DNA of 64,000 nt from Candidatus Aerophobetes bacterium Ae_b3b (GCA_005223085.1 NJBP01000002.1:2427-66426), one strand, 5' to 3'; shown: positions 1 through 26,843, counted from the first letter of the stretch. The notes: generated from the letters alone by a model not told the origin. Translations and numbers: made by a program.

Positions 1-606
1 GCTACTCTGGTGTGCTCAGGCACCAAATGACCCCCTTCTTTTTTGGTGAAGTATTTATCGTCCTTCCTTGCTGGGTGCTCATCCCGTCGAACAGCCATGA
101 ACAAGGCTTTTATATTATTTTCTTCCACGAACTGATTGAGAACAACTGTTTTCATGAGGTGATTGCCAGCATAAGACTCTGCCTCAAAGGTGAATGAGTC
201 TTCCTCAAATCCAATTCGCTTAAGCTCAGCCTGATTTTGCTCATTTAAATCCTCTACATTGACGAGGCAGCCTAGATGACTTTGACAGCATTTAAGAACA
301 TCAAAATTACAAAGCCACTTAAGATCGACGTTCCATCTTTTTAAGATCCTGATAAGAAAGTCGGTGATTTCAGTAAATGCGTCCCCTTCATCAATGGTGA
401 TAACGTGTGGAAGCTCAATATTATCTTCCAAGCACACCTGACGAATGATCCAGAGATTGGTAGTACTATCTTTTCCTCCGGTCCAAGTAATAGCCGCTTC
501 AGAGGGTCTAAACTTTTCAAATGCTTGCCGGACGATCTTTTTGGACTCGCCAATTTTTTTTTGAATCTCTCTGGTTCTTTCCTCACTAACCTGGTATCCT
601 TTCACC
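1..606 (-). CDS. PAPS reductase / CysD-family PP-loop ATP pyrophosphatase (3' partial, runs off window)
   Basis: Manual minus-strand translation is open from a GTG at 606 (RBS AGGAGG 7 nt upstream) to position 1: VKGYQVSEERTREIQKK...AITWTGGKDSTTNLWIIRQ...LPHVITIDEGDAFTEITDF. The TGGKDS PP-loop and the HVxxDxG block are typical of the PF01507 family. Missing from the ORF track because it is partial. Confidence 0.6.
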
Positions 607-639
607 GGTTTACCTCCTGCAACTTTTCTGTTTTAGTTA

Positions 640-1854
640 CTATTCCTTCCCTAACCATCTTCCTAGTCTTGGTCTCAATATCTCTTTCATCCTGTCTACC
701 TTGGGGGATATTTCAGCTATATTGTTAAGCTCCTGGGGGTCCCGCCGAAGATCATACATCTCCCAGCTATCCGTATTCTCTCTGTATATCACTTTGAACT
801 CTTTGTTCTGGTAGTAGTATATGGGTCTATCGGTCTCCTTCTCGTGGGCGCTTCTTTTATCAATAGCCTCGCCAAAACATCCCCTTTCAGGAAACTCTTC
901 CAGAGGAAGGAGAGAGTGACCTTCAAAACTTTCCTCGCGGTCTAGGCCAAAAAGATTAACGATCGTGGGGGGGACATCAATGCTACTCACCAAGGTATCA
1001 GAAACCCTACCCCTCGTTTGGGTATGATTATAGATTAAAAAAGGCACATTTATGAGTTCGGAGTACATCTTGCCATCATGAGAGAGACCCCCATGTTCAC
1101 CAAACTCATCGCCGTGATCTGAAGTTATAACAATGACTGAACCCTCTAAGAGGTCGATTTTTTTTAATAGCTCAAAGAACTCTTCCACGTAACTGTCTAC
1201 TTGCCGAATATGGACAGAGTAAAGTTTTTTTAGAAGTTCTACCTTTCCTTTGTCGGAGAGATCTCGTTTCAGTAGAGTTTCTTTAAATAAGTTAAACATT
1301 TCACCCCGACTGAGGTCAATGGAAGAATCAACCATATCAATATATTTTTTCTCAGGCATATAGGGCTCATGCAAATCCATATAGTGAAGCCACAAGAAAA
1401 AAGGCTTGTATTTTCCTCCTTTGATATAGGAGGAGAGCCACTCCTTTACCTTTCCGTTAATCTCATCTCCTTTTATATAGGGAACTTCCTCACTCACTTC
1501 ATCTTCTATTGAATCATAAAAAACATCCCAGCACCGGTTCCAGCCAAAATAATCGCTAAGATAGGGATTTGAGTGAAACCCGGCGGTGGTGATTCCAGAT
1601 TTTTGAAGTACTGTAGAAATCAAGGTTTTCTTTGGGGAAAGATACTTCTCTCTTCCGTATTCAAGATAATATGAAGAGGTGAGTATCGCTGGAAATGAGG
1701 CCTGAGTGTATGGTCCTGTAGCCTGCATATTAGTAAATCTAATGCAGCTTCCCTGAAGAGAGTCAATAAAGGGAGTTAAGTTACTTTTGCTGTCATAGCA
1801 TCCTAGCACATCTTTTCTAAGGGTATCTATGGTAAGTAGAATAACATTTTTCAT
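640..1854 (-). CDS. sulfatase-fold (AlkP superfamily) hydrolase, Thr variant lacking C/S-x-P-x-R
   Basis: N-terminal LLTIDTLRKDVLGCYDS and IRFTN...TGPYTQASFPAILTS align to the sulfatase signature block. The FGly position reads T-Q-A-S-F, so both Cys and the Pro/Arg are lost. Confidence 0.7.
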   Translation of the reverse strand: MKNVILLTIDTLRKDVLGCYDSKSNLTPFIDSLQGSCIRFTNMQATGPYTQASFPAILTSSYYLEYGREKYLSPKKTLISTVLQKSGITTAGFHSNPYLSDYFGWNRCWDVFYDSIEDEVSEEVPYIKGDEINGKVKEWLSSYIKGGKYKPFFLWLHYMDLHEPYMPEKKYIDMVDSSIDLSRGEMFNLFKETLLKRDLSDKGKVELLKKLYSVHIRQVDSYVEEFFELLKKIDLLEGSVIVITSDHGDEFGEHGGLSHDGKMYSELINVPFLIYNHTQTRGRVSDTLVSSIDVPPTIVNLFGLDREESFEGHSLLPLEEFPERGCFGEAIDKRSAHEKETDRPIYYYQNKEFKVIYRENTDSWEMYDLRRDPQELNNIAEISPKVDRMKEILRPRLGRWLGKE

Positions 1855-1931
1855 TTTGCGTTCCTATTTGCTCTTCTTTTTATACTTTAACCTCTAGGTC
1901 TATCTGCAAGGTATCAATTTTTGGCTAATTA

Positions 1932-3191
1932 TTACCACAATGCTGGGAGTTTAAAAACAGGTTTTCTTTCAGCCAGATATTTCTCGGTACAAAAAGGAGA
2001 GCCAAAACCGTACTTTTCAGCGCTCTCCATTAACTTATCATATATCTCCGGTCTGAAGATAAGCTTGGTGGGCTTCACCTTATCCTCTATCATACTTCTA
2101 ATTAATGTACCGCTGAATTTTTGTCTTTCCTGGCTATGACCACAGAGACCCGAGTAAGTGACTTCCCCACATATTGGGCAGTACCACCATTCAAGCACCC
2201 GTACTGGCTTAATTTTCAATTTATGTTGGGGGATCTGGTCGAATATGCGGTGAGCATCATAGGAGCCATAGTAGCTACCTACTCCAGCATGGTCTCGACC
2301 AAACATGTGATGAGTGCATCCTAAGTTCGTCCGCAGAATGGCGTGGAAAATAGCCTCTCTTGGCCCTGCGTAGCGCATATCCCACAGAGCAATGGTCACC
2401 ATATGAATATCATCTCTGAAGTACCTTGCCTCACAAAGTCGCTGATGACACAAAACAATGGCCTCATCTATATAATCACCGGTTCGCTTAGGTCCAATTA
2501 TACAGTTTACCAGGATCCCTGTCTTTAGCTTCTCTACGGGAAGTTCTCCATTTGCAGAAAACCAAGCTCCCTTCATTAACCATTCATGCCCACTATGCGG
2601 CACATTCCTGGTTTGATGGGCTACTACTCTTTCCCAACCGTTTTCAACTATTCTCTTTCGCAGTTGCCTTGGCGTATACCAGAATCTATCAAAAGGGGGC
2701 TGGAACTCGGGGGGGTTCACCAAAGCAATCTTCCCCCCTAAGAAAGTATTCTCCAATCCCCTAAGCATTCTTACTCCAGGGTGTCTCTCATCGGTTGTTC
2801 CCAGCACAGCCTCTGCTATTTTCGTTTTATTGAGTCTGAAAATATCTTCCACTTCCATCATCGCCAATGAAGAGGCAGTGTAAGTAAGGAGAATGGAATC
2901 TCCTTTCTTAATTTTCTTTGTTCTGATTTCCTCCTCTTTCACATCGAGAACAATGGGGATAGGCCAGAGCGTGCCGTCAGCCAAGGTCATCCTTTCGCAT
3001 ACCGCATCAACCTCTTCCTTACCCATAAAACCCTCTAGGGGGGTAAAAAAACCGTAGGCGATGTTGATGCATTCTCTCGCACATCGTCCACTGACGGGAA
3101 TTTGCTTCAACTTTCTAATCTTTTCTGTTACTTCAGACTCGGGTATCACCCTTTCTCTAATCTCGCGGTTACCATGCCCCTCATAGTTCAT
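1932..3191 (-). CDS. sat: sulfate adenylyltransferase (ATP sulfurylase), Zn-ribbon-containing type
   Basis: QTRN(VPHSGHE) and GRDHAG motifs, PUA-like N-terminus (FTPLEGFM, LADGTLWPIPI). C-terminal CPICGEV-x8-CGH resembles the Cys3His zinc site described for Thermus Sat. Confidence 0.9.
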   Translation of the reverse strand: MNYEGHGNREIRERVIPESEVTEKIRKLKQIPVSGRCARECINIAYGFFTPLEGFMGKEEVDAVCERMTLADGTLWPIPIVLDVKEEEIRTKKIKKGDSILLTYTASSLAMMEVEDIFRLNKTKIAEAVLGTTDERHPGVRMLRGLENTFLGGKIALVNPPEFQPPFDRFWYTPRQLRKRIVENGWERVVAHQTRNVPHSGHEWLMKGAWFSANGELPVEKLKTGILVNCIIGPKRTGDYIDEAIVLCHQRLCEARYFRDDIHMVTIALWDMRYAGPREAIFHAILRTNLGCTHHMFGRDHAGVGSYYGSYDAHRIFDQIPQHKLKIKPVRVLEWWYCPICGEVTYSGLCGHSQERQKFSGTLIRSMIEDKVKPTKLIFRPEIYDKLMESAEKYGFGSPFCTEKYLAERKPVFKLPALW

Positions 3192-3266: not shown

Positions 3267-4355
3267 TTAAGTAAATTTGCCCTTCATATCCTGTAGGCCT
3301 TCATGTTCCGGACCATATCGGTATGCTCTGGGGATAATTCTGTTATGTCCATAAACCGGATCGGACGAGGCAGAGAAGGGATTAACGAATTCCCAAACGA
3401 TCCGTCCTGATTTCATTACCTCAAAGATTCGTCCTGTCGCTGCCTCGCATATCAAAGTATTATCATTGGGTAGCCTCTGACAACTAGACATGTAGGCACT
3501 ATAAAAAGCCATCCAAGGGTCATCCTTATATTCCCACACCATTTTATTGGTAGCGGGATTTACCTCCAAAACGCGAGAGTACCCTTCAGAAATATGGACA
3601 CAGTGCGTCCCATTATCAAATAACAGAATGTTCCCATTTTCGAGGATGGTAGCACTATTTTGATGACCTAGCTCTCCTCCCGAACCCCACCGCCATTTGA
3701 TATCTCCTGTAGATTTGCTGATGATACATATACTATTAAGTCGGGCGAAGCTAGCTAAGATATCCCCATTGGATAGGATGGCAAATGAATTAGCCTCGGT
3801 CCACTGGCTACGGGGACATAAGGAACAAATAATGTCCTTTTCTGGATCTAAGTGCTCGTATGCCAACCACTTCCAGACTATCTTACCACGCGGATTAACC
3901 TCTTGAAAAGAGTCACCCCACATAATTCCTTCCTTTTCAGTACCTAGTATACCGCCTTTGACTTTTGCAGCAATATCCTTGGGTACCTGAACCCATCTAA
4001 GTACCATAGTATTTCCATTGAACAGGCGGCAAAAACTATGGTGCAAATACCGGTCCTGGTAATTCCATACCACATTACCATTCCAATCTACTTCAAGTAA
4101 CTCTCCCCCGGCACCCTTAAAACTAGCCAACGGTCCGTTTTCTAGCTGCCCGGCATAAAGCAGATTGCCACTATTCAAAAGCACCCCGTACAACGCTGGT
4201 GGATATGGTACCTTCCATTGATGAACGACCCGTCCCTTCATATCAATTAACATCGTTTCCCTTATTCCCAAAGGAGTAAATAAGGTATACCCATTGTAAG
4301 CATTTGAATGAACATAGTGGGTAACCCCTTTCAAATTGGTTCGTGCAATGCCCAT
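3267..4355 (-). CDS. arylsulfotransferase (ASST)-like beta-propeller protein
   Basis: Repeated NGN/DNG blade motifs (ENGNILLFDNGTH, LSNGDIL, LPNDNTLICE) and an HH(S/D)F block. Start moved to MGIARTNLKG (RBS AGGAGG 7 nt upstream) by comparison with the paralog; the ORF-track N-terminus is an extension. Confidence 0.5.
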   Translation of the reverse strand: MGIARTNLKGVTHYVHSNAYNGYTLFTPLGIRETMLIDMKGRVVHQWKVPYPPALYGVLLNSGNLLYAGQLENGPLASFKGAGGELLEVDWNGNVVWNYQDRYLHHSFCRLFNGNTMVLRWVQVPKDIAAKVKGGILGTEKEGIMWGDSFQEVNPRGKIVWKWLAYEHLDPEKDIICSLCPRSQWTEANSFAILSNGDILASFARLNSICIISKSTGDIKWRWGSGGELGHQNSATILENGNILLFDNGTHCVHISEGYSRVLEVNPATNKMVWEYKDDPWMAFYSAYMSSCQRLPNDNTLICEAATGRIFEVMKSGRIVWEFVNPFSASSDPVYGHNRIIPRAYRYGPEHEGLQDMKGKFT

Positions 4356-4385
4356 TGGATCTCCTCCTTGCCCCATTAAAAATAT

Positions 4386-5558
4386 CTACGTAGCATCAGG
4401 TCCATATATTCCATTTAACCACTCAAATTTGTCAGGATCTAAGTTCTTTCCTATTAGCCCCTCATGTTCATGTCCGTAGCGGTAAGCTCGATAGATTAGG
4501 TTAGCCTGACCGTAAACCACAAAGGGGCCATAAAAGGGACTGATATACTCCCAAACTATCTCACAATCAGGAGTCGCCTCGAAAATACGACCTCCATGAG
4601 TCTCACATATCAAAGTATTCCCGTTTGACAGACGCTGGGCCCCCCCCATACCAAAGGCATAGAACTCCGACGGAGGGTCATCCTTATATTCCCACTCAAT
4701 TTTATTAGTAGCTGGATTAACCTCCAATACTCTAGAATAGTAATCCAGATCTTGGGTGAAAAAACGATGCGCTCCATTATCAAAGACTAAAATATTCCCA
4801 TTATCCAGCATAGTAGGCTCATGCTGGTGTCCCAATTCCTCGGGACCCCACCTCCAGGTGATCTTTCCCGTAGCTTTATCAATAATACAGATGGTATTAG
4901 TCTGGCGAAATGAGCCTAAGATATTTCCATCTGGTAGCACAGTACAACCATTCATATGAGTCCATTCTCCTCGATACTCCAGAGGGCAAATGACATCTAT
5001 CTCCGGATCTAGGTGTTCGTACGATAGCCACTCCCACACTACTTTACCCTCAGGAGTAACCTCATTAAGGGCATCAGCCCACATAACCCCCCCGCTCAAC
5101 TCTGTACCCGGGATACCACCTTTGACCTTACTTTTAATGTCATCAGGCACAGTTACGTATTTTATAAGCATAGTATTTCCATTTTCCATGCGGTAAAAGT
5201 CGTGATTAAATTGTGGTTCTTCGTACTTCAATACCAGATTATTATCCCAATCTACCTCTATTAAACACACGCCTCTATCTTGCTCATTTTGCTCGCAATC
5301 CTCACCAAAGAGGTAGGCAACCCCCGGTCCCATTATGCCCCCCGACTTAACACCTTGATAAACCAGATTACCATTAGTCAAAAACCGTGCAAAATTTGGT
5401 TTATACGGTTCTGTAGACCAATGGTGCACAATTCTACCCTGCATGTCGATCAGCCACGCATCATTGCCAAACATAGGCGTAAACAAAGTATACCCTTTAT
5501 ATGCCTTTGAAGGAACATAGTGGGTAACCCCCTTCAAACTGGTTCGTGCAATACCCAT
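4386..5558 (-). CDS. arylsulfotransferase (ASST)-like beta-propeller protein, tandem paralog
   Basis: Paralog of 3267-4355 (MGIARTSLKGVTHYV..., LDNGNILVFDNGAHR, NHDF). Start set at MGIART with RBS GGAGG upstream. Confidence 0.5.
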   Translation of the reverse strand: MGIARTSLKGVTHYVPSKAYKGYTLFTPMFGNDAWLIDMQGRIVHHWSTEPYKPNFARFLTNGNLVYQGVKSGGIMGPGVAYLFGEDCEQNEQDRGVCLIEVDWDNNLVLKYEEPQFNHDFYRMENGNTMLIKYVTVPDDIKSKVKGGIPGTELSGGVMWADALNEVTPEGKVVWEWLSYEHLDPEIDVICPLEYRGEWTHMNGCTVLPDGNILGSFRQTNTICIIDKATGKITWRWGPEELGHQHEPTMLDNGNILVFDNGAHRFFTQDLDYYSRVLEVNPATNKIEWEYKDDPPSEFYAFGMGGAQRLSNGNTLICETHGGRIFEATPDCEIVWEYISPFYGPFVVYGQANLIYRAYRYGHEHEGLIGKNLDPDKFEWLNGIYGPDAT

Positions 5559-5728
5559 TGGATTTCCTCCCTTCGTCAACCTGATTAAGAATCTTCTCGT
5601 ACCTCGTGTTACGACCAACACAAACTAGACACAGCCTTGACATAGGCTGTTGACATATCCTATCTCCTCCTTAAAAAGCCTCTTTTATGAGAAAGGGGAT
5701 TATTCTTGATTCCGCCTGATACTAAATT

Positions 5729-7548: not shown

Positions 7549-8373
7549 TTATATCTTTACGGCCCCCGCGGTAAGCCCTCTTACAAAATACTTCTGCAAT
7601 AAGAAAAAACCAATAATTAAGGGAAAACACACTATTACATCTATGGCCATAAGATCATTCCAAAATATATTATATTGACCTAACTTGGCACCTATAACTA
7701 CAGTTAGCATCCGTCGATTAGCAGAAGTAGTGAGTACAAGTGCAAATATATATTGGTTCCACGCAACCAAAAAGCCAAATAAAGCCGTAGCTATCATTCC
7801 AGGAAAAGATAATGGCAGAATTATTCGGAGAAAGGCTCCCAATCTTGAGCATCCGTCGATTAGCGCAGCATCATCCAGATCTACAGGTATATTGACAAAA
7901 AATCCTCTGAGTATAAGTGCACAAAAAGGTAAAGTAAATGTAAGATAGGTTAGCATGAGACCAGGATAGGTATCGTAAAGTCCAGTTCTCTTTAATATAA
8001 GATAATAGGGAAGGATTAAAAGAACAGGGGGTATCATCTGTGTGGAAAGCATATAGATAATAAATGTATTTTTACCCTTAAATTCGAATCGAGAAAGCCC
8101 GTATCCTGCCACTGCTGCTAAGAACACAGAAACTAATGCTACGGAAATGGAAACTATCACGCTATTAATAACAGCCTGCAGGAATGCCGGATCACTCAAT
8201 ACCCTTTCGAAAGCTCCGAAGGTTATCTTTTCTGGTACCCAACGAGGAGGAATGGTGAAGACTTCCTGCGCTTCCCTTACAGAAATTGTGCACATCCAAA
8301 ATATAGGAAATACTATAATTATAACTACTACAATACAACAGGTAAACCATACATATTTCTTAATATTCGTCAT
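7549..8373 (-). CDS. carbohydrate ABC transporter permease (MalG-like)
   Basis: Six TM segments and the EAA-loop region (DAALIDGCSRLGAFLRIILP). Confidence 0.85.
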   Translation of the reverse strand: MTNIKKYVWFTCCIVVVIIIVFPIFWMCTISVREAQEVFTIPPRWVPEKITFGAFERVLSDPAFLQAVINSVIVSISVALVSVFLAAVAGYGLSRFEFKGKNTFIIYMLSTQMIPPVLLILPYYLILKRTGLYDTYPGLMLTYLTFTLPFCALILRGFFVNIPVDLDDAALIDGCSRLGAFLRIILPLSFPGMIATALFGFLVAWNQYIFALVLTTSANRRMLTVVIGAKLGQYNIFWNDLMAIDVIVCFPLIIGFFLLQKYFVRGLTAGAVKI

Positions 8374-9288: not shown

Positions 9289-9540
9289 TTTTTAGCTCTT
9301 TTCCAAAAATAGTTTGCACTTAATTCGTCGATGGGAGCTATGATTTTCTCACCACTATATTCTATTGCATATCTAACAAGAAGAGGTATTTGCAGTACAT
9401 CGGGAGCAGTACCAGCATTTACAGCCACTAATATCTTCTCCTCGTATCTCGGGCCACTAACTCCTATAGTATTTAAAATCTTCTTATGTTGAGCGTTTCC
9501 CTCTACCGAGCAAAGAAAAACTCTTCCCCCGTTTGATTTT
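9283..9540 (-). pseudogene. remnant of an extracellular solute-binding protein gene (fragment, no proper start)
   Basis: Minus-strand frame reads ...KILVAVNAGTAPDVLQIPLLVRYAIEYSGEKIIAPIDELSANYFWKRAKK*. It resembles the AGxxPDV block of the neighbouring SBP (MWQAGRLPDVLAVNRNWLWEF...EPLDPY). It is bounded upstream by an in-frame TAA, and its stop overlaps the permease ATG (ATGA). Confidence 0.35.
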
Positions 9541-9631
9541 TAGCAAGCCTGATATCATCCACTTTATCCAGCGCCTCTCGAGCTATCGCTCAAAATGAAC
9601 CTGCTTCATTCCTCACTTATAGTACAGAGGC

Positions 9632-9676: not shown

Positions 9677-9699
9677 CTAATCGCTAGTAAATGATTTTT

Positions 9700-16656: not shown

Positions 16657-16689
16657 CTCTCACCTCCCTCCTGGCCTTATTTTCTAGCT
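16657..16689 (-). promoter_or_regulatory. conserved upstream box, copy 2
   Basis: tctctcacctccctcctggccttattttctagct, about 120 nt upstream of the SBP start. Confidence 0.5.
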
Positions 16690-18282: not shown

Positions 18283-20213
18283 TCTTCTTGCTCCACTACA
18301 TCGTAAAGTACTCGCCCCTCTGCATTTCCCGGTGGGTGTATGCCTACAAGATAAGCTACAGTTGGTGTCACATCTATAGTTCTCGCTGGAACCTTACGTC
18401 GATATCCCTTTTTAACACCTGGACCCTTTATGAAAAGAATTGCTTTCATCGTCCCCAAGTTCTGCCTAGAAGACGGAAGATAGGTATGGTGGACGCCAGC
18501 GAAGGGATAAATGCCTTCCTCAGACTCATAGGGAGGATCCTCAATAATAGGCAGTCCTTTAGTGAGTATCCAAGCTGTCTCATCGTTGTACTTTGGATTT
18601 AGAGTATATACGATATCTCCCACTCTATCTCCGTGCTGACCAAAAAACGCGGCCTCTTCCTTCTTCAAGATCATATTTACGACATTCTCTCTAGTTTCTG
18701 GATCTTTGAGATTTCGGAAAAGGTCGATAACCTTCTCTCTTATCTTCTCGTAATCTTTAGGGTCTACAACCCCTCCTTTTTCTCGTCCGGCGAGGTTAAC
18801 ATAAATATACGAACCAAAGGGAGAAAAGACTTTAGTTTTGGACCAGTCAACTTTCAGGTTACCATCCTCAGTCTCTTTGTAAGCTATAAGACCTTCTCTC
18901 GCCAAAAAGTTATTGCAGTGGAATACCTTCCTTGGAGCCATATGTCCATGGTCTGAGACAACTAAGATAAGGGCCTCTTCTCCAGCTGCTTTCATAAGTC
19001 TTCCTAAGTAGACATCCGCCATCTGATAGACTCTACGGATGACCTCTTCACATTCTGTTGCCCTTTGCTCCTTGTAGGCAGAACTTTCCGGGTCCATTCC
19101 TCCAAGATAGCAGTGATCAGTGTAATCTATTCCGTGCCACTGGGCAAAGAGCATATCCCAGTCCTTATTCTTCACAAGATACTCTCCTGCCTCTGCCAAC
19201 CAGCTCATTTGATTCTCCAGCTCCTCTAGATATGTTTTTGAATCTATCCATCCTCCCAATATAGGACTGTAAATATCACAGAGAAGCTGATACGGTCGGC
19301 CGATATGCTCTGTGAGCTCTCTGGCAAGACTATCTGGATAAGTCCACCCCGTGGAGGGAAAGATCTGGCTAAAGTAGAGACGAAACCTTTTCGCATCCTT
19401 GGAAAGCTCAATGAGTTTCATACGAAAGTTCCCTTCCTCTTTTCCTTTACTGGTGGTAAATTCTGCCTTCAAAAAGTTGCTCCACTCCCCTTCAGTTATG
19501 CTACATAAAGCTTTTTCTATATCTTTTTCCTCTGAGAGGAAAAATCTGTCGTAACCCTCACCTTTGCTATCTATAACCAGAGCATAAAATGCTTTCTCTT
19601 CTCCCCCCGGAGGACGGATCTTTAGTATGGTCTCTAGCGGAGGAGAGTTTGAAGAAGGCCTGTTTCCCCATCTCTGCGCCTCCTTAAACTCTACCTTATA
19701 GGCACAGCTTATCTCCTTAGGTCCTGCCCCATAGGCTTCCATGTTTCTTTCTCGCATCTTCTCTGTGGAAAACCCAAGTCTAGGAGCAATTTGGAAAGGG
19801 TTCCAATCTGGATTTCCCACTCCTTCAACCTGTAGACCTTCCTTTATAGTTGGAGGCCAGGAGGCTGGGTAACGCAAGAGAATTACCTTCTTTCCCTGTC
19901 TTTCTGCTGCGTTCCATAGGTACTCTGCCTGACATCTTTCGGTGGTGAAAGACTGAAACCTCTCAGAAAGGGAAGTTCCGGGAAGATGAAGAGTCATCTC
20001 CACAATACCGTGAGTACCTACGTTGGCTCCTGTGGCAATACAGGTCCAGTTCATAGCTGTACCTGTGGGAATAGCAGGAAAAGTTTCTGAGGTCACTCCC
20101 TCTTCCATAAGGCGCTTCATGTTGGGAAGATGACCTTCCTTCACAAATCTTTCCACTAAGTTCAAATTCGCAGAGTCGAGTCCTAGTAGTATACATTTTT
20201 TTACGCGTGCCAT
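18279..20213 (-). CDS. AlkP-superfamily type I phosphodiesterase / nucleotide pyrophosphatase (NPP)-like protein
   Basis: ILLGLDSANLNL and FPAIPTGTAMNWTCIATGANVGTHGI match the NPP PTxTFPNHYTxVTGxxPxxHGI nucleophile block (Thr). Confidence 0.7.
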   Translation of the reverse strand: MARVKKCILLGLDSANLNLVERFVKEGHLPNMKRLMEEGVTSETFPAIPTGTAMNWTCIATGANVGTHGIVEMTLHLPGTSLSERFQSFTTERCQAEYLWNAAERQGKKVILLRYPASWPPTIKEGLQVEGVGNPDWNPFQIAPRLGFSTEKMRERNMEAYGAGPKEISCAYKVEFKEAQRWGNRPSSNSPPLETILKIRPPGGEEKAFYALVIDSKGEGYDRFFLSEEKDIEKALCSITEGEWSNFLKAEFTTSKGKEEGNFRMKLIELSKDAKRFRLYFSQIFPSTGWTYPDSLARELTEHIGRPYQLLCDIYSPILGGWIDSKTYLEELENQMSWLAEAGEYLVKNKDWDMLFAQWHGIDYTDHCYLGGMDPESSAYKEQRATECEEVIRRVYQMADVYLGRLMKAAGEEALILVVSDHGHMAPRKVFHCNNFLAREGLIAYKETEDGNLKVDWSKTKVFSPFGSYIYVNLAGREKGGVVDPKDYEKIREKVIDLFRNLKDPETRENVVNMILKKEEAAFFGQHGDRVGDIVYTLNPKYNDETAWILTKGLPIIEDPPYESEEGIYPFAGVHHTYLPSSRQNLGTMKAILFIKGPGVKKGYRRKVPARTIDVTPTVAYLVGIHPPGNAEGRVLYDVVEQEE

Positions 20214-20471: not shown

Positions 20472-21845
20472 CTACCTCACTGAAGTGTGAGATAACTCAT
20501 ACTGAAGCTGCAACATCTTTGTTTTCTGGGAGAAGGTTCTGTTTATCTCTTTTACTTTAAGGGTGAAATACCTGCCAAGATGGGATAAAAACTCCTCTAC
20601 TTTTTCCGGATACTCGTCGATGAGGTTTTTTGTTTCTTTAGAATCCCCCTTTAAGTTATAAAGTTCATTTTTCTCCCCTTCAGGGTGAACAAGTAAGCTC
20701 CACTCTTTATCTCGGATGCACCGATGATATGATTCATGGTAACCGGTTATGATAAAATCTCTTATCTTCTCCTTTTTTCCCCTAACAACGGGCCAGAAGC
20801 TTTTCCCGGACATAGCCTGGGTCTCTTTTTTGAGATCCATTGCCTCCAGGATGGTAGGAAGAACATCAGGCATTTGAATGAGAGTATCAATCCTTTTCCC
20901 TGCATAAAGTCCCTCAGGAGGATGAATGAAAAGAGGTATTCTTATAAGCTCACCGTATAGATTATCCGGGGTCTTCATTATGGAGCCATGATCTCCATGA
21001 GGATGTCCATGATCGGAGAGGAGTGCTATAAGAGAGTTATCATAAAGACCACAATCTTTTATCTTCTCTAAAAGGTATCCCACCCACTTATCCACAAAGC
21101 TTACCTCTCCTGCATATAGAGCTTTCACATATTTTAGCTCCTCATCACTCATCCAGTCAACTTTTCCATATTGGGGATGGATGAGTTTGGGACCTTCATA
21201 ATTAGGATTGGTATACATCTTATCAAAAGGAGAAGGAGGGTCCCAGGGCTCATGGGGATCAAAGGAGTCCACCCAGAGAAAGATCTTTTCCTCACCTTTA
21301 TTGCGTTCCAGCCACCTTACCGCCTCCTGCATGACCTGGGCGGCAAAATAGTCTTCTTCTTTTTGCCAATGTTCGGTATTTTTCAAGTACTGCTCAAGCA
21401 TTCCCTCCACAGGATCGCCTTTCATGGCTGGCTTTATATAACCATTGATATTCTTATTTAAAGGGCCTGACACATAGGAGTCTGCCTCCTGTCCCCTTAT
21501 CCAACGAAAGCAGCTAAATCCTCGGTGAAAGTTCATGTCAGGTTTAAATAAATGGTAGGTGTCAGCAATCAAGGCTGAGGTGTAGCCGTACTCTCTCAAT
21601 ATCTCTGAGATAGTTACATCCTCTTTGGTTAAGGGTTGCCAGGGTCGGTAGGGAAGGCTACTACATCCTGTGAAAAGCTCAGTTCTAGCCGGAATGGTGG
21701 GAAGACCTTCGGTGTAAGCCTCTTCAAAGAGGATACTCTCCTTAGCAAATTTATCTATATTGGGCGTCTTTATCCATGTATTCCCATAGCATCCCAGATG
21801 ATCCTGCCTCAAACTATCCAGCATAATCACAATAAGGTTCATCAA
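20472..21845 (-). CDS. sulfatase-fold enzyme, T-x-P-x-R variant (paralog of 11575-12993)
   Basis: MLDSLRQDHLGCYG N-terminus. AYTEGLPTIPARTELFTG carries Thr-Ile-Pro-Ala-Arg where sulfatases carry Cys/Ser-x-Pro-x-Arg. Confidence 0.75.
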   Translation of the reverse strand: MMNLIVIMLDSLRQDHLGCYGNTWIKTPNIDKFAKESILFEEAYTEGLPTIPARTELFTGCSSLPYRPWQPLTKEDVTISEILREYGYTSALIADTYHLFKPDMNFHRGFSCFRWIRGQEADSYVSGPLNKNINGYIKPAMKGDPVEGMLEQYLKNTEHWQKEEDYFAAQVMQEAVRWLERNKGEEKIFLWVDSFDPHEPWDPPSPFDKMYTNPNYEGPKLIHPQYGKVDWMSDEELKYVKALYAGEVSFVDKWVGYLLEKIKDCGLYDNSLIALLSDHGHPHGDHGSIMKTPDNLYGELIRIPLFIHPPEGLYAGKRIDTLIQMPDVLPTILEAMDLKKETQAMSGKSFWPVVRGKKEKIRDFIITGYHESYHRCIRDKEWSLLVHPEGEKNELYNLKGDSKETKNLIDEYPEKVEEFLSHLGRYFTLKVKEINRTFSQKTKMLQLQYELSHTSVR

Positions 21846-22087: not shown

Positions 22088-23209
22088 TTATGAAGGTAAA
22101 CTTTTACCTGTAGTAGGATCGAACAAGTAGATATTTTTTTCTCTAAAAGCAAGGAAAATTTGATCTCCAACCCCAAGCTCTTCTACCTCCAGAGGAGGAA
22201 ACACTCCTCTCAATTTTATCCTGTCCCTTTCAAAATGTACCACTATCTCTCGACCAAATTTCTCTATTACCTCAACACTCATCTTCAAGCTGCCTATGTA
22301 TCCTCTCGGAGATCTTTGATTAGCTTTTACTATACAAATATCTTCTGGCCTCATTCCAATTACTACCTTGTCTATATTACTTTCTTTAATAACTTGGGTT
22401 AATCTAGGGGACAGCAGAATCTTAAAATCTTTGTTTAAAAGAACTAATCCTCTTCCCTCTTTAAGTTTAAATTCACAATCACCAAAGATGTTCATAGGAG
22501 GATTTCCAATGAATCTAGCAACAAATTTGTTTTTGGGTCTAAAATACACCTCCATAGGAGATCCTATTTGCTGGATCTTTCCTTCATTTATAACAACAAT
22601 TCGATCACTAATTGACATTGCCTCATTCTGATCATGGGTTACATGAATTATCGTTGCTCCAAGCTTTTGGTTTAACCTACGTAACTCTGTTTGGAGTTCT
22701 ATTCTCAATCGCGCATCTAGGTTAGCAAAGGGCTCATCCATCAGAAAAACTGAAGGATCTCGCACAATTGCTCTACCAATAGCTGCTCGCTGTTGCTGTC
22801 CTCCACTTAACTCATGAGGCATTCTTTCAAGCAAATGTTCGATTCTAAGCAGGCGTGCAGCATTTTTTACTTTTTCCAAAATCTGCTCCTTAGAAAACTT
22901 CCTCTGCATACGCAGCCCAAAAGCAATGTTGTTTTTGATTGAAAGATGAGGAAATAAGGCAATACTCTGGAAAACCATGGCTATATCTCGGTCCTTGGGA
23001 GGAAGATGGGTGACCTCTCTTTTCCCTATGAAAACTTTCCCCTGATCTGGCTGTTCGAGACCAGCTACACAATAAAGAGTTGTAGATTTACCACATCCAC
23101 TGGGCCCTAGTAAGGTCATCAATTCTCCATCGTTAACCTTCAAATTAAAATCTTTGACCGCTGTTATCTTGCCGTATTTTTTGGTCAAATTTTCGAGTCT
23201 AGCTTCCAT
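22088..23209 (-). CDS. ABC transporter ATP-binding protein (MalK/UgpC-like)
   Basis: Walker A GPSGCGKSTT, signature LSGGQQQR, Walker B FLMDEPFANLD. C-terminal regulatory domain. Confidence 0.9.
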   Translation of the reverse strand: MEARLENLTKKYGKITAVKDFNLKVNDGELMTLLGPSGCGKSTTLYCVAGLEQPDQGKVFIGKREVTHLPPKDRDIAMVFQSIALFPHLSIKNNIAFGLRMQRKFSKEQILEKVKNAARLLRIEHLLERMPHELSGGQQQRAAIGRAIVRDPSVFLMDEPFANLDARLRIELQTELRRLNQKLGATIIHVTHDQNEAMSISDRIVVINEGKIQQIGSPMEVYFRPKNKFVARFIGNPPMNIFGDCEFKLKEGRGLVLLNKDFKILLSPRLTQVIKESNIDKVVIGMRPEDICIVKANQRSPRGYIGSLKMSVEVIEKFGREIVVHFERDRIKLRGVFPPLEVEELGVGDQIFLAFREKNIYLFDPTTGKSLPS

Positions 23210-23212: not shown

Positions 23213-24088
23213 TCATTCCCGTGATCTTGCAACTAATCCTCGTATTATCTGTTTTTGAGCTAATAAGATGACTAACAATATGGGGATCATGGACACAACC
23301 GAGGCAGCTGTCACTAAATCCCAAGGCTGATAATATCCAACCGCAAATCGAAATATACCAATTGGAGCAGGCTGAGACGCCTTGGTGTGACTGAACAAGT
23401 TAGAAAAGAAAAATTCATTGTAAGTCATTATGAATGTCATTAATCCTACTGAAATAAAGCCCGGTAGGGCTAAGGGAACAATTACTTTCCAAAGAGCCTC
23501 AATCCTTGTGCATCCTTCAACTCGGGCAGCTTTCTCCAGATCCTGGGGTATCTGTTTATAGAACGCCTGAAGGGCCCAAACTGCTATTGGTAGCAAGTAA
23601 GCCGAGTCTGGTAAAATCATGGCAAGATGGGTATCTAACAAACCCCATCTGGAAAACATCTCAAATAGAGGGAAGAGAAAAGATACTTGAGGAAACATGG
23701 AAAGTCCCAGAATTGTGAGCATTATGATCATCTTCCCTTTGAGGCGGGCTCTACCAAAAACATACCCGGCTAAACTTCCAGCAAATAAAATAATAATTGT
23801 TGTGGAGCCAGAAATAATGACACTATTTAAAAGGTACCTTTCAAAATCCATGAATTTCCATATCTTTATAATATATGGGCTAAGGTCAATACTCCTGGGT
23901 ATAAGGTGTTGGATACGACTGTACAGTTCAGAGGGAGGTTTAACAGAAGACATGAATAACCAGTAAACCGGAAATAAAGCCTGAAGAATAAAGATAGACA
24001 CAAGTATCCAAAATGCTACTTTATAAAGTTTTGATCCATCCCCCTGAAATACTAATTTACTTGCCTTCTTTATTCCTTTTAAGATCAT
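23213..24088 (-). CDS. carbohydrate ABC transporter permease (MalG-like)
   Basis: EAA loop (EKAARVEGCTRIEALWKVIVP). Confidence 0.85.
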   Translation of the reverse strand: MILKGIKKASKLVFQGDGSKLYKVAFWILVSIFILQALFPVYWLFMSSVKPPSELYSRIQHLIPRSIDLSPYIIKIWKFMDFERYLLNSVIISGSTTIIILFAGSLAGYVFGRARLKGKMIIMLTILGLSMFPQVSFLFPLFEMFSRWGLLDTHLAMILPDSAYLLPIAVWALQAFYKQIPQDLEKAARVEGCTRIEALWKVIVPLALPGFISVGLMTFIMTYNEFFFSNLFSHTKASQPAPIGIFRFAVGYYQPWDLVTAASVVSMIPILLVILLAQKQIIRGLVARSRE

Positions 24089-25101
24089 TTTCTTCTTTTC
24101 TCCATATATTGAATGAACACCAGGTAGGCCAATATAATAAGAAAAGTAAATATCATTGTCATCGTAGCTATTGCACTTCCTTTTCCGATGTTCTTCGCAG
24201 TGAAAAAAGTCCTTATCGTTAATAACTGCAAGGTCTCGGTAAGTCTCCCTGGCCCTCCGCCTGTCATAGTCTCAATAATGCCATATATCCTCATCGCTGT
24301 AATTGCCCGCCATAGCACCACTACTGTTATAGCTGGCATAATAAGGGGAAGGGTAATGTGCCGAAAGATCTGCCAGGTGTTCGCCCCATTTACCTTAGCT
24401 ACTTTATAATATTCCGAGGGTATCGACTCCAGAGCTGCAAGTAGTAATAATGTACTGATAGGAATATTTCGCCATACTGCTGCAACAATAACAGCATTCA
24501 TAGCTACAGCTGAGTACATCCAGTTAAATACATGGGAGTAAGATAGCAACCATGGAATGTATTCTTCTATGAATCCTGCTGACTTCAACAGATAGTTAAT
24601 AACTCCATATTCGCTACTATACATTAGTTTAAAGGTTATACCTGCAATAGCTATAGGAGTAGCCCAAGGTACCAGAAGTGCAGTTCTAATAATAGCCTTT
24701 CCTTTAGTTTGTTTGGAGGCAAGAAAAGCACCCATCATTGCAAACAGGAGCATAAAAACAATATTTAAAACAGTAAAATAAAAGGAATGGAGAAGAGCGG
24801 CAAAAAAGATTGGGTCCGTCAAAAGGGAGATGTAATTGGCAAGCCCGGTGAATTTATACTCCAGCCAGGGTTTGGTCGGTGCATATTGGTGAAAGCTCAC
24901 CCAAATTGTTCCAAGGAGAGGAACCCCGATTATTACGGTAAGTAATAGGATAAGGGGACTTAATAGGAGAAGACAAAAGTGCCCCTCCGATAGTCTTTCC
25001 ACCCATAGACTGAATTTACCGGGTATACCTCTTATCCCATTTATGAAAAGACCCAGGGAAACCGTTCTTAGTTTCCCTGGGCTGTTTCTCCCTTTTACCA
25101 T
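24085..25101 (-). CDS. carbohydrate ABC transporter permease (MalF-like)
   Basis: EAA loop (YKVAKVNGANTWQIFRHITLP). Overlaps the downstream permease start. Confidence 0.85.
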   Translation of the reverse strand: MVKGRNSPGKLRTVSLGLFINGIRGIPGKFSLWVERLSEGHFCLLLLSPLILLLTVIIGVPLLGTIWVSFHQYAPTKPWLEYKFTGLANYISLLTDPIFFAALLHSFYFTVLNIVFMLLFAMMGAFLASKQTKGKAIIRTALLVPWATPIAIAGITFKLMYSSEYGVINYLLKSAGFIEEYIPWLLSYSHVFNWMYSAVAMNAVIVAAVWRNIPISTLLLLAALESIPSEYYKVAKVNGANTWQIFRHITLPLIMPAITVVVLWRAITAMRIYGIIETMTGGGPGRLTETLQLLTIRTFFTAKNIGKGSAIATMTMIFTFLIILAYLVFIQYMEKRRK

Positions 25102-25109: not shown

Positions 25110-26483
25110 TTACTTTTTCCTTCCATACTCTTCCTCGATCTTCCTCATACCGGCTTCAAGACGTTGAACAGCTTCCTTCACATCGTACTGGCCAATTAGC
25201 ATAGGCTTAAGTACATCTATCAGCAGTGCTCTCAGCTCCCCGTAGACCGGGCTGAACGGCCGCTCATTAGCGTATTGAACTGCTTGCCCAATGGTTCTCG
25301 CATAGGGGGCAAGCAAAGGGGAAACTTCTTTAATTTTCTCAGGAGTGAAAAGAGCCGAGTAGGGAGGTAGGGCTCCCATAGCGTTAATGAGGAAGAGCAA
25401 TGAATTGGGCTCTGCTGCTGCTTGAATTACCTTTACTGCTGCCCTCTTGTTCTTGGAGTTGGGATTCACTCCCCACCACCATCCCCCCATTGAACTGTTG
25501 CCATGAGGAGACATTGCCGAGTAAAGTGGTGTCGCTGCCCATTTCTCGGAAGAGAGTCCAGTTACCGGTTCCAATTGAGTAATTCCGAAGTTCCAGAGTC
25601 TCATAAAAACGGACTTACCGGCACCAAACATCCTCATCGCGTCACTGTTATTCCAACTGATAGCTTCTTTAGGCATAATCTTGTGCTTTAAATACAAGTC
25701 CTGCCAGGCCTTCAGAGTCATAATAACCTCGGGGGCATCAGCGGTTATGGGACGGTCTCCTACCGGTCCATAGAGATACTGTTTTCCTCCGTAGAGATAT
25801 CCGTCAAAAGCCCGCAAAAGCTCAAAGAAGAAGCCATCAAAACTTCCACCCTCATGGGGAGCGATCCAGCCGTAAGGAACACCTTCTTTTTCAGAGACCT
25901 TTTTAGCAGCATCAATGAGGTTGCCCAAGCTGGGGTTACTGTCAAACTGTAAGGGAGTAACCTTGTATCCATATTTTCCTAAGAGATCCTTCCGCACGTA
26001 GAGAACTCCTACCCCGAACCGCCAAGGAACAGCATAGTACTTGTTACCCCATGCCGCAGCATAAATACTTTGGTGTACTGGAAAAAGTCGGTTCCAAAAA
26101 TCTTTGGGCATGTGTTCCATCAGTGCTTCCGCATCTAGCCATCCTGCAGTAACATATTCTGCATAGTCCTCTACGGTAAGACTGGTGAGGTCCGGTAGTG
26201 ACTGTCCAGTTATCATAATTGTGGCAACTTCTTCCCTTTCCTTGGGGACACTGACATCAGAACGTCCAGGAACGAATTCGACTTTTATATCTTCTCCCAT
26301 TTTTATTACATTGTCTTGAACGATGGATTTCCACTTCTCCCAGTTCTCATCAGTCATTCCCTTATTAGCCCGGAACTGAACTTTAGTGGTAGCCCCAGCG
26401 GTACCGAGGCTAATCCCTGCTAGGATAAGGCAACTCAAAGCCAATATACAGAGACTTCTGCAAACATTTGCTTTTGCTCTCAT
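25110..26483 (-). CDS. ABC transporter extracellular solute-binding protein
   Basis: Signal peptide and SBP-like sequence; first gene of the SBP-perm-perm-ATPase operon. Confidence 0.8.
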   Translation of the reverse strand: MRAKANVCRSLCILALSCLILAGISLGTAGATTKVQFRANKGMTDENWEKWKSIVQDNVIKMGEDIKVEFVPGRSDVSVPKEREEVATIMITGQSLPDLTSLTVEDYAEYVTAGWLDAEALMEHMPKDFWNRLFPVHQSIYAAAWGNKYYAVPWRFGVGVLYVRKDLLGKYGYKVTPLQFDSNPSLGNLIDAAKKVSEKEGVPYGWIAPHEGGSFDGFFFELLRAFDGYLYGGKQYLYGPVGDRPITADAPEVIMTLKAWQDLYLKHKIMPKEAISWNNSDAMRMFGAGKSVFMRLWNFGITQLEPVTGLSSEKWAATPLYSAMSPHGNSSMGGWWWGVNPNSKNKRAAVKVIQAAAEPNSLLFLINAMGALPPYSALFTPEKIKEVSPLLAPYARTIGQAVQYANERPFSPVYGELRALLIDVLKPMLIGQYDVKEAVQRLEAGMRKIEEEYGRKK

Positions 26484-26598
26484 ATTTTCCCTCCCTGAAA
26501 TATGGTTCGAATTTCTAGGAAAGCTCTCATCAAGAAAAAACCATGAGTTAACAACCTACCTCGAGAACTTCCTTTTCCTGAGCTGACAGCCTACTCAT

Positions 26599-26629
26599 TC
26601 TCTCACCTCCTCCTGGCCTATTTTTAGCT
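26599..26629 (-). promoter_or_regulatory. conserved upstream box, copy 3
   Basis: tctctcacctcctcctggcctatttttagct, about 117 nt upstream of the SBP start. Confidence 0.5.
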
Positions 26630-26843
26630 CTTCTCTTACCGACAATCCAGCTTCACTACTACTTGTGAGGATTTTTCGAGCAGCATTTCTCTCAAAAACT
26701 TTCCTTAACAATGTTCACTCTCAAAAACATTGACAAAACATCCATCGAGATTATACCAAAAAAGAGCCGCTTTGGCAAGACCACCCTCGTTTTAGTTTCG
26801 CCTTCTAACCTGCATTCCTCATCGATCCAGAAAAGATTGCCCC

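Follow-up and report, generated by a model that had tools for sequence, protein, structure and literature searches.

Gene content and organization of the locus

The window analyzed here, by which we mean the whole 64,000-nt stretch and not the feature under study, matches exactly a 74.9-kb contig (TKJ462xx) of the metagenome-assembled genome (MAG) of Candidatus Aerophobetes bacterium Ae_b3b. Its first 26,650 nt carry 24 genes, all on the minus strand, which encode three carbohydrate ATP-binding cassette (ABC) importers, three proteins of the sulfatase fold with threonine in place of the usual nucleophile precursor (SulfA, SulfB and SulfC), two NPP-like proteins, two homologues of the ASST-type sulfotransferases, an ATP sulfurylase (Sat) and a PP-loop protein. 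We read the region as a regulon of at least four transcription units with one common leader element, and find that its conserved unit, as judged from gene neighborhoods in related contigs, is a cassette of ASST-like, Sat, SulfA and PP-loop genes. The locus probably handles sulfate groups by chemistry not worked out so far. Its host is an uncultured marine-sediment bacterium, and near-identical contigs are present in several metagenome assemblies, including JGI samples 3300009529 and 3300009499.

Gene calls were based on a map of open reading frames (ORFs), whose translations were scanned against the profile hidden Markov models of Pfam and NCBIfam. The gene list, coordinates, family assignments and minus-strand orientation given by a first-pass annotation, made from the sequence without database searches, were reproduced in this way. 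That annotation had described a one-directional island: the 24 genes are indeed co-oriented, but the same strand continues beyond them through genes for AKR, IclR, GAF-ANTAR, NadE and a HIT protein to 31.8 kb, shortly before dnaA begins on the plus strand at 32,018, and co-orientation is thus not special to the island. The features are as follows.

1-611, minus strand: PP-loop protein, N-terminal ~200 aa only (PF01507 PAPS_reduct); the gene runs past the left edge
640-1854, minus strand: SulfA, cassette-type sulfatase-fold protein (PF00884, 136 bits)
1932-3191, minus strand: Sat, homo-oligomeric ATP sulfurylase with PUA_2 and ATP-sulfurylase domains (PF01747, 251 bits)
3267-4376, minus strand: ASST-like 2, beta-propeller sulfotransferase homologue (PF05935/PF14269 above cutoff)
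4386-5621, minus strand: ASST-like 1 (PF05935/PF14269); the true start is likely near 5558, as relatives have 390 aa
5729-7204, minus strand: NPP-like A, COG3379-type AlkP-superfamily protein (PF01663, 72.8 bits)
7549-8373 and 8404-9288, minus strand: module A permeases, 2x BPD_transp_1 (Pfam)
9700-11016, minus strand: module A solute-binding protein, CUT1 di/oligosaccharide type (SBP_bac_1, 137 bits)
11065-11215, minus strand: leader copy A (alignment; nhmmer 4e-33; covariance model 64 bits)
11575-12993, minus strand: SulfB, Thr-variant sulfatase-fold protein, T-L-Q-V-R (PF00884)
13367-14215 and 14212-15201, minus strand: module B permeases (BPD_transp_1)
15205-16539, minus strand: module B solute-binding protein, CUT1 type (SBP_bac_1)
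16557-16703, minus strand: leader copy B (alignment, nhmmer, covariance model), preceded by a terminator-like hairpin at 16913-16899
16975-18282, minus strand: Fe-dependent alcohol dehydrogenase, Fe-ADH (PF00465/PF25137)
18279-20213, minus strand: NPP-like C, 644 aa (PF01663, 129 bits)
20472-21842, minus strand: SulfC, Thr-variant sulfatase-fold protein, LPTIPAR (PF00884, 141 bits)
22088-23209, minus strand: MalK-type ABC ATPase, the sole one in the island (Pfam)
23213-24088 and 24085-25101, minus strand: module C permeases (BPD_transp_1)
25110-26483, minus strand: module C solute-binding protein, CUT1 type (SBP_bac_1)
26497-26643, minus strand: leader copy C (alignment, nhmmer, covariance model), ~100 nt downstream of a promoter-like site
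26844-27839, minus strand: aldo/keto reductase (AKR), beside module C also in the related contigs L001 and L006
28364-28440, minus strand: leader copy 4, partial, first domain only (nhmmer; covariance model 36.6 bits, E 9e-5), in the 760-nt IclR-AKR spacer
28602-30463, minus strand: candidate regulators of the IclR family (28602-29381) and of GAF-ANTAR type (29729-30463), which adjoin the island; the link is putative

On sequence signals, modules A, B and C are separate transcription units, each with its own leader: the promoter-like site before module C is strong (TTGCCA-17-TGnTATAAT, 26778-26750), and the terminator-like hairpin before leader copy B lies 3' of Fe-ADH. The modules are also separable, inasmuch as in the close relatives L007 and L010 (labels of this form denote related contigs or loci used for comparison) a LacI-family gene, and not SulfB with module B, precedes module A; the order C-then-B is retained in L002 and L003. 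Sequence identity is 42% between SulfB and SulfC, 24-25% between SulfA and each of these two, 23-27% within the NPP-like pair, 53% within the ASST-like pair and 22-23% among the binding proteins. With such identities the duplications are old, as the first-pass annotation had also held. The same MAG has a second SulfA and a second ASST-like gene on another contig. The enzymes begin, as read from their sequences, at the first beta-strand with the metal-binding Asp and have no signal peptide, and the binding proteins have hydrophobic N-termini; on this reading, the sulfatase-fold, NPP-like and ASST-like enzymes are cytoplasmic, in agreement with the earlier view of the ester-cleaving ones.

A cassette is conserved, and not a triad

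The triad of an importer, a Thr-type sulfatase and an NPP-like gene had been singled out in the first-pass annotation as one to look for in other genomes. For this search we took 80 species-representative genomes from other phyla and analyzed the genes next to their SulfC homologues, with a pipeline validated on L002 and L007. The outcome refutes a conserved cross-phylum triad: ABC permeases are found at 4 of the 80 loci and an NPP-like gene at none. No family is present in more than 8 of these loci, and the recurrent neighbors are sulfatase-fold genes, GFO/IDH/MocA oxidoreductases, enolase-superfamily proteins of the MR/MLE type, HpcH aldolases, an epimerase and a GDPD protein. Judging from such neighbors, the context of SulfC elsewhere is that of cytoplasmic sugar or sugar-acid metabolism. 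The triad recurs in Aerophobetes-like contigs only.

A second survey, centered on the ASST-like genes, covered 80 metagenome contigs, many of them short, and points to a different unit, namely a co-oriented cassette found in many contigs from sediment metagenomes, in which one to four ASST-like genes are combined with Sat, SulfA, the PP-loop gene and, in some cases, DUF6955. Across the 80 loci SulfA-type genes occur 26 times, Sat 24, the PP-loop gene 19 and NPP-like A, adjacent to the ASST-like genes, 15 times. The PP-loop gene directly follows SulfA in 16 of the 19 cases with room downstream, and Sat lies within 1.5 kb of SulfA in 19 of 26. The arrangement is kept, with all genes co-oriented, even on contigs whose ASST-like proteins are only 53-60% identical to those of the window. 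By this measure it is the cassette, and not the triad, that is the conserved unit.

The importers that accompany the cassette fall into five classes, namely CUT1 ABC, DctP-TRAP, TAXI-TRAP, TctC-TTT and DASS. CUT1 ABC importers accompany it in Aerophobetes-like contigs, DctP with a fused DctQM TRAP permease in L106 and L171, a TAXI-type binding protein with a 643-aa fused permease at ~10 loci, and TctC in L166. In L174 the order is Sat, SulfA, PP-loop, DUF6955, TauE, Sulfotransfer_3 and Na_sulph_symp (DASS), and a TauE-family anion permease is seen downstream of the cassette at no fewer than 8 loci. Regulators nearby belong to the LacI, DeoR, GntR and GAF-kinase/LuxR types, and neither a kinase nor a reductase of adenylyl sulfate (APS) was recognized in the cassette neighborhoods. 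A larger set, comprising a CUT1 importer, a sulfatase-fold protein with the TxPxR motif, NPP-like A and two ASST-like genes, recurs in L094-L097, L105, L172 and L173, whose ASST-like genes are 56-82% identical to those of the window.

Genes of the URO-D family (MtaA/CmuA-like methyltransferases) are also seen near the cassette, downstream of it in L007-L009 and at 11173-12357 in L173. Together with a RACo-type corrinoid reductive activator in the window, they hint that these same organisms carry out corrinoid-dependent O-demethylation of methoxylated aromatics, which would yield phenols. Phenols are the usual substrates of ASSTs.

The sulfatase-fold proteins are of a threonine type

SulfA, SulfB and SulfC score 121-141 bits against PF00884 and have the metal-binding Asp and Asp-His. 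All three have Thr at the formylglycine position (T-I-P-A-R in SulfC, T-L-Q-V-R in SulfB and T-Q-A-S-F in SulfA), a variant first noticed by eye and borne out by alignment to the E. coli sulfatase 3ED4 and to the respective families. At the level of residues, the Thr of SulfC aligns with the formylglycine Ser of 3ED4, and the Pro and Arg of the motif are retained (LPTIPAR). The SulfC family, with at least 5,645 homologues at E<=1e-10, spans many bacterial and archaeal phyla, nearly all of them represented by MAGs, and TxPxR is present in 117 of the 120 best homologues. Its invariant residues are D9, R12, D14, T49, R53, Y96-H97, H197, D277-H278 and K290, a pattern that, except for the Thr nucleophile, resembles the arylsulfatase/phosphonate monoester hydrolase site of EfAS and of the phosphonate monoester hydrolases (PMHs).

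SulfA belongs to a distinct family in which conservation is tight: at least 2,015 homologues were found, and identity is 63-80% for many of these. Its metal ligands are conserved, and its invariant motif is GPYTQASFP, in which Thr is retained and the motif Arg is replaced by Phe. An AlphaFold2 model of SulfA (pLDDT 68.6, pTM 0.78) best matches S1 sulfatases and PMHs, with TM scores of 0.65-0.71; pLDDT is low at the active-site loops, and we therefore draw no residue-level conclusions from it. As the Thr is invariant across both of these large families, it is to be regarded as functional and not as a sign of decay.

None of the three proteins has the Cys or Ser of the (C/S)-x-(P/A)-x-R motif that is convertible to formylglycine. 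According to SulfAtlas, PF00884 proteins with Thr would give a ketone and not formylglycine, and are not to be named sulfatases unless experiments support it (PMC5066984). No anSME or FGE maturase is encoded within the window. A single radical-SAM gene is present there (58510-59871), and it is of the B12-binding type and has no SPASM domain. EfAS, a Mn-dependent arylsulfatase that gave weak NCBIfam matches, was considered as a characterized Thr-type relative and rejected, as it is of the Cys type; the open-access literature yielded no characterized Thr-type member.

Thr is the nucleophile of NPP, PhnA, LtaS and EptA, and Thr nucleophiles of this superfamily, which are also found in phosphopentomutase and the phosphomutases, act by transfer through a covalent intermediate. 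In arylsulfatase A the formylglycine-to-Ser mutant reportedly traps the sulfo-enzyme, and in the sulfatase fold a sulfo-Ser or sulfo-Thr intermediate is known as a dead end for hydrolysis. Cleavage of sulfate esters by the Thr-type proteins is no more likely than phosphodiester chemistry or the transfer of a group. The earlier family assignments hold, but a role as ester-cleaving sulfatases is doubtful, since Thr cannot form formylglycine, and one of the NPP-like proteins is degenerate.

The ASST-like, Sat, PP-loop and NPP-like proteins

The two ASST-like proteins score 63 and 76 bits against PF05935 and 59 and 60 bits against PF14269, all above cutoff, and have at least 2,511 homologues. Profile searches match 9KF4 (8e-15) and E. 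coli AssT, 3ELQ (2e-6), with alignment around the catalytic His. ASST-like 1 reads H-Q-H, with His at the position of EcAST His436, and ASST-like 2 reads H-Q-N, with Asn there; profile alignment and motif counts indicate that the His which is invariant in the family is the one two residues upstream. The proteins share with ASSTs such as AssT, the Cpz4-type proteins of PF14269 and 9KF4 the beta-propeller, the catalytic-His region and the FDNG motif, and like Cpz4 they are predicted to be cytoplasmic. They differ from AssT in being ~200 residues shorter, and from the classical periplasmic enzymes of clusters I and II in that they have no signal peptide and the island has no dsb gene that could supply a Dsb partner. 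They differ from ASSTs at large in the upstream shift of the invariant His, in the Asn of one paralogue and in the genetic tie of their genes to Sat, a tie of which we know no earlier report. Sat itself scores well above the NCBIfam cutoffs for ATP sulfurylase (PRK04149, 492.6 bits against 387; TIGR00339, 378.6 bits against 323).

The PP-loop protein had been placed in the PAPS-reductase family (PAPS, 3'-phosphoadenosine 5'-phosphosulfate). The PF01507 domain is present, but the function does not follow. The full-length orthologue in L007, of 280 aa, has the PP-loop TGGKDST, a GYRSLG motif and a tail that reads ...GRRQDKEKTMERLRKLGYM / ...RRQDKEKTMERLRKLGYM, and lacks the ECGLH Cys motif of the reductases. 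Its solved relatives are the eukaryote-type FAD synthase (FMN adenylyltransferase, 4e-11), CysD (4e-5) and APS reductase (1e-4). A PAPS/APS reductase (CysH) was rejected on account of the missing C-terminal Cys motif and of FAD synthase and CysD being the nearest solved relatives. CysD was rejected as well, since the protein scores 49.9 bits against an equivalog cutoff of 195 and no CysN-like GTPase was recognized in any neighborhood looked at. This pattern of motifs and relatives points to an adenylyl-transfer enzyme and not to a reductase.

Both NPP-like proteins pass the PF01663 cutoff. NPP-like C retains the PTGT...N nucleophile motif and the SDHGH metal ligands, and its sole, weak solved relative is phosphonoacetate hydrolase. 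In NPP-like A, PPAL stands in place of PTGT and SGYS in place of SDHGH, and in a 13-member alignment of this protein and 12 homologues the nucleophile and ligand positions read PP(A/T)x and SGY(S/G). With the nucleophile not conserved and the metal ligands lost, NPP-like A is probably a non-catalytic member of the alkaline phosphatase (AP) superfamily and not an esterase. Its conserved C-terminal tail (...SRLxxLGY) resembles that of the PP-loop protein (...RLRKLGYM; L007:11250-12092), and the similar tails could be a common docking motif.

Importers and the adjoining dehydrogenase

Each module encodes an SBP_bac_1 protein and two BPD_transp_1 permeases, and the MalK-type ATPase is present in module C alone; with these components the systems classify as CUT1 carbohydrate ABC importers, among which shared ATPases are common. 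The best solved relatives of binding protein A are 5CI5 and the trehalose/maltose-binding protein (TMBP) 1EU8, and those of binding protein C are MalE3, TMBP and the sulfoquinovosyl-glycerol binder SmoF. Across all three proteins the solved relatives comprise TMBP, MalE3, GacH, CbpB and SmoF, and the proteins are closer to disaccharide binders than to UgpB. Within module A a 411-nt gap (9289-9699, minus strand) separates binding protein A from the permease and begins with a perfect 15-bp hairpin; one of its frames (…VAVNAGTAPDVLQIP…APIDEL…) resembles part of a binding protein and is possibly a gene remnant, the match to the local binding proteins by BLAST being not significant.

The ORF of Fe-ADH overlaps the stop codon of NPP-like C by 4 nt. 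Among the NCBIfam models, those for ErcA, GbsB and lactaldehyde reductase come closest, with scores that do not reach the cutoff. The Pfam match begins at residue 48, and a segment of ~38 aa at the N-terminus (MNFEYLLPRTELMSGKGVLENI...) looks like a diverged duplicate of the real N-terminus behind it (MTFRYLFPRTNLIFGEGALESL...).

A lineage-specific leader element

The conserved box noticed before each binding-protein gene in the first-pass annotation proved to be a leader of ~150 nt, present upstream of all three genes in a three-copy alignment; nhmmer and a covariance model bring the copies in the window to four, at 26.6, 16.7, 11.2 and 28.4 kb. The first domain has the form GCUAAAAAUAAGGCC-AGGAGG(G)AGGUGAGAGA-...-GGCC..UAGCU, in which a near-perfect Shine-Dalgarno-like core, GGAGGUGA, is flanked on both sides by short complementary segments. 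The 3' part consists of a long hairpin of variable sequence followed by a conserved GAAAuUxGAACCAWG tail. With the covariance model, 0.88 Mb of related loci yielded 18 matches, and 1.12 Mb of sequence from other phyla yielded none. Copies are found in L094, L095, L096, L109-L111, L116, L117, L134 and L173; in diverged relatives the leader precedes binding-protein genes and ASST-like genes, and in L110 and L111 it lies between the ASST-like genes and Sat. No common motif was detected in the other intergenic gaps of the island.

By eye, the outer helix of the leader displays compensatory changes, such as AGCUAA/UUAGCU to AGCUGGA/UCCAGCU, and G-U pairs. RNAalifold found no structure on the MAFFT alignment of the leaders, single-sequence folds were no more stable than shuffles, and in the model-fitted alignment the pair count was 72% paired as against 70% in shuffled versions, 73 of 500 shuffles reaching the observed covariation score. 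A known riboswitch was rejected, as the leader regions give no Rfam match at the gathering score or at E<=5, and an ANTAR target or attenuator seems unlikely, as inspection by eye revealed neither dual hexaloop hairpins nor a U-tract past the long hairpin. There is no conserved leader peptide, an AUG following the Shine-Dalgarno-like core in copy C only. From its distribution, we treat the leader as a lineage-specific cis-regulatory element that would tie the units into one regulon.

Functional interpretation

We tentatively favor, with the chances still slightly against it, the reading that the locus is a co-regulated system for imported esterified, probably sulfated, compounds, which are processed by group transfer linked to adenylyl sulfate and not by formylglycine-dependent hydrolysis. 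The three CUT1 importers would take up small esterified molecules, of which sulfated glycosides, oligosaccharides or aryl compounds are the most probable. In the cytoplasm their ester group would be transferred by the Thr-nucleophile enzymes SulfA, SulfB, SulfC and NPP-like C, with the PAPS-independent sulfotransferases of the ASST type taking part. The functional core would be the cassette, linking the organic sulfuryl pool to APS. We lean towards a catabolic direction, in which sulfuryl groups of the imported esters would pass to APS or sulfate, the sulfate would be exported or reused, and the carbon skeleton would go to the adjacent dehydrogenases Fe-ADH, AKR and Zn-ADH. A supply of released sulfate to Sat, as suggested in the first-pass annotation, is only one among several directions that may apply.

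What we observe is which genes and motifs are present, that the cassette is conserved and coupled in modular fashion to importers, and that the units have a leader in common; the substrate class, the transfer chemistry, its direction and any link to ATP are what we infer. The varied importers, the substrate-type regulators and the anion permease together look like inducible catabolism of imported, often anionic, compounds, and the tandem ASST-like genes with Sat point to sulfate esters. Transfer is proposed because Thr nucleophiles of the superfamily transfer via covalent intermediates whereas sulfo-Ser or sulfo-Thr would be a dead end for hydrolysis. The likeness of the binding proteins to disaccharide binders and SmoF counts in favor of this reading, as does a leader common to the binding-protein, ASST-like and Sat units and absent in other phyla.

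Several points weigh against it. A covalent Thr-O-sulfate would be chemically inert, ASST-like 2 is without the canonical catalytic His and NPP-like A is probably inactive. The Thr-type proteins may instead act on phosphodiesters, their active site (Tyr-His, Asp-His) being PMH-like. L174, where a canonical P-loop sulfotransferase and a Na/sulfate symporter-family protein join the cassette, reads more naturally as activation for sulfation. Finally, SulfC-type genes outside the lineage are unlinked to transporters or the cassette, and a function of modules B and C that has nothing to do with that of A is therefore conceivable.

A doubtful alternative is that the system is anabolic. Sat, SulfA and the PP-loop protein would then activate sulfate without an APS kinase, and the ASST-like protein, or elsewhere the P-loop sulfotransferase, would sulfate imported or internal acceptors; sulfate could enter via TauE or DASS, and a sulfated solute, an envelope component or a good leaving group are possible purposes. 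The L174 gene order with Sulfotransfer_3 and Na_sulph_symp fits such a scheme, as do the failure to recognize an APS kinase or reductase in any cassette neighborhood and the likeness of binding proteins A and C to trehalose/maltose binders. Precedents are also at hand: the cytoplasmic ASST-like protein Cpz4 acts downstream of sulfate activation in caprazamycin biosynthesis (PMC13426309; PMC4257720). Likewise, 5'-O-sulfonamide formation by the ascamycin cluster has been proposed to require the joint action of a 'sulfatase', of CysD/N/C and of a sulfotransferase, and knockout of the sulfatase or the sulfotransferase abolished production, with the role of the sulfatase unexplained. However, the importers of high affinity, the regulators of substrate type and the as many as four ASST-like genes in tandem have a catabolic look. 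There is no linked glycosyltransferase or other biosynthetic gene, and spending ATP on the sulfation of imported carbon is hard to justify in energy-starved sediment.

It is unlikely, and somewhat more so than the anabolic scheme, though a serious rival where these modules are concerned, that modules B and C with the SulfB/SulfC family serve phosphoester metabolism, the Thr-type enzymes and NPP-like C being cytoplasmic phosphodiesterases or phosphonate monoester hydrolases. Just as unlikely are the corollaries that they act on imported glycerophospho-sugars, teichoic-acid-like fragments or other necromass, with Fe-ADH oxidizing the released small alcohol, and that nearness to the sulfur cassette reflects co-regulation only. 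The Thr nucleophile shared with NPP, PhnA, LtaS and EptA speaks for this view, as do the N-terminal LDSLRxDH, which resembles the DGxRxD of NPP, the Tyr96-His97 and Asp277-His278 pairs, which are like those of the PMHs and EfAS, and the full NPP-type site of NPP-like C. To these may be added the GDPD-family gene among the neighbors of SulfC homologues in other phyla and the small-alcohol and aminoalcohol dehydrogenases that are nearest to Fe-ADH. Against it stand binding proteins that are not UgpB-like and the sulfatase-specific Pro and Arg retained in TxPxR. Moreover, SulfC/SulfB-type genes directly adjoin ASST-like pairs in the Aerophobetes-like L097 and L173, and the common leader links modules B and C to the sulfur units.

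That the region has no functional unity, being merely three sugar ABC operons and a sulfur operon side by side on one strand near dnaA, would account for all genes up to dnaA lying on the same strand, for the LacI gene that may replace module B before module A and for neighborhoods of SulfC homologues in other phyla that are unrelated to the window, but is very unlikely, given four units with a lineage-specific leader that in relatives also precedes ASST-like and Sat genes, and a set of importer, Thr-sulfatase, NPP-like A and two ASST-like genes that recurs at 56-82% ASST-like identity.

Returning to transfer of sulfuryl groups from imported esters as the preferred reading, a narrower version of it, which we consider quite unlikely, makes the cassette a machine for sulfuryl transfer, by which organic sulfate esters would be coupled to adenylyl sulfate with no hydrolytic step. 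The net catabolic reaction would be R-OSO3 + AMP + PPi -> R-OH + ATP + sulfate, with Sat working in the ATP-forming direction and TauE exporting sulfate. Hydrolysis of a sulfate half-ester yields ~-8.9 kcal/mol and that of ATP to AMP and PPi ~-10.9 kcal/mol; from these values we estimate that the net reaction is more or less thermoneutral with alkyl sulfates and favorable with aryl sulfates. If so, 'energy-rich' sulfate esters would support substrate-level phosphorylation in energy-starved sediment, and in the opposite direction the same machinery would be a one-ATP route of sulfation without an APS kinase. In either direction, the Thr-type enzymes would work as transferases, an activity new to the sulfatase fold, and the leader would be a new cis-regulatory RNA.

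Relationship to known systems

The first-pass annotation had recognized no described locus type here, and our searches of the open-access literature indeed found neither the cassette nor TxPxR enzymes of the Thr type described, nor any account of how Aerophobetes metabolize sulfur, with nothing relevant beyond SulfAtlas. The cassette thus appears to be undescribed. The nearest precedents for its combination of genes are the sulfate-activation sets, Sat or CysDN with CysC and CysH and, above all, ascamycin acmA/B/W/G/K, in which an ATP sulfurylase likewise stands beside PF01507, PF00884 and sulfotransferase genes, and in the ascamycin case a required sulfatase-family gene is equally unexplained. 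Unlike these sets, the present one has no CysN GTPase, APS kinase or reductase Cys motif, and its PP-loop protein is nearer to FMN adenylyltransferase; unlike ascamycin, it is found with importers and catabolic regulators in uncultured sediment bacteria, and not in an antibiotic cluster.

With S1 sulfatases and PMHs (AtsA, BT4656, RlPMH/BcPMH, EfAS) the Thr-type proteins share the fold, PF00884, the metal ligands Asp and Asp-His and the active-site His and Lys; SulfC keeps x-P-x-R, and S1 sulfatases and PMHs are the best sequence and structural matches. They differ in the Thr nucleophile, the change of the second Asp to Ser/Thr, the change of the motif Arg to Phe in SulfA, their predicted cytoplasmic location and the absence of a maturase gene from the window. 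In combining uptake with sulfatase-family enzymes and in the presumed organosulfate substrates, the locus is reminiscent of ats/ssu operons and of the Bacteroidota polysaccharide utilization loci (PULs) with S1 sulfatases. As had been claimed, neither architecture is present in 1-31 kb: the locus has no SusCD, AtsB/anSME, FGE, TauABC/SsuABC-type transporter or monooxygenase, and combines cytoplasmic Thr variants with ASST-like, Sat and PP-loop genes. The UgpBAEC-UgpQ system similarly pairs a CUT1 ABC importer with a cytoplasmic ester-cleaving enzyme. Here, in contrast, disaccharide binders, and not UgpB, are the nearer relatives of the binding proteins, and the enzymes belong to the AP superfamily and not to GDPD.

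Organic sulfate esters are a large and poorly understood pool of sulfur and carbon in marine sediments. To our knowledge, genomic surveys score every PF00884 gene as a 'sulfatase'. The two large Thr families, of which the database searched contains at least 5,645 and at least 2,015 members, should be left out of such counts until they have been tested, and one of them, that of SulfA, is locked into a cassette with ATP sulfurylase, homologues of PAPS-independent sulfotransferases and an adenylyltransferase-like protein. According to recent reviews the physiological roles of bacterial ASSTs are poorly understood, and the cassette offers a testable entry to these roles as well as to that of the Thr-type sulfatase-fold proteins. 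If the cassette links sulfate esters to APS or ATP, the deep biosphere would harbor a new way to handle sulfur and, possibly, to conserve energy.

Genomic surroundings

The GC content of the island (0.39-0.48) is the same as in the remaining window, the island has no tRNAs and no integrase-like gene was found among the ORFs scanned in 1-31 kb, which rules out a mobile genomic island. GC skew follows the coding strand in the window and was hence not taken as evidence for an origin. In the close strain L001, two fragments of a sulfatase family, of 143 and 192 aa (751-1856), lie upstream of AKR and apparently represent a disrupted gene; their site corresponds in the window to the IclR-AKR spacer.

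The gene dnaA (32018-33361, plus strand), 5 kb to the right of the island, opens a short plus-strand gene run, in which it is followed by thioredoxin and the RACo-type activator (33623-35803, plus strand; RACo 33956-35803). Two cobalamin riboswitches were detected, at 58206-58428 (minus strand) and 62559-62743 (plus strand), with 106 and 90 bits; one is upstream of a TonB-dependent receptor/TonB/TPR operon (53455-58023), the other upstream of CobU. SusC and SusD are absent from 1-31 kb, and the only TonB-dependent receptor is the one behind the riboswitch (56137-58023); the operon with this receptor and TonB implies a diderm envelope. A MazF/PemK-type toxin gene (38653-38985, minus strand) lies amid housekeeping genes for HPPK, YicC and guanylate kinase, and a 727-aa ORF (44215-46398, minus strand) with diaminopimelate decarboxylase (Orn/DAP/Arg decarboxylase) and epimerase domains is an apparent LysA-DapF fusion.

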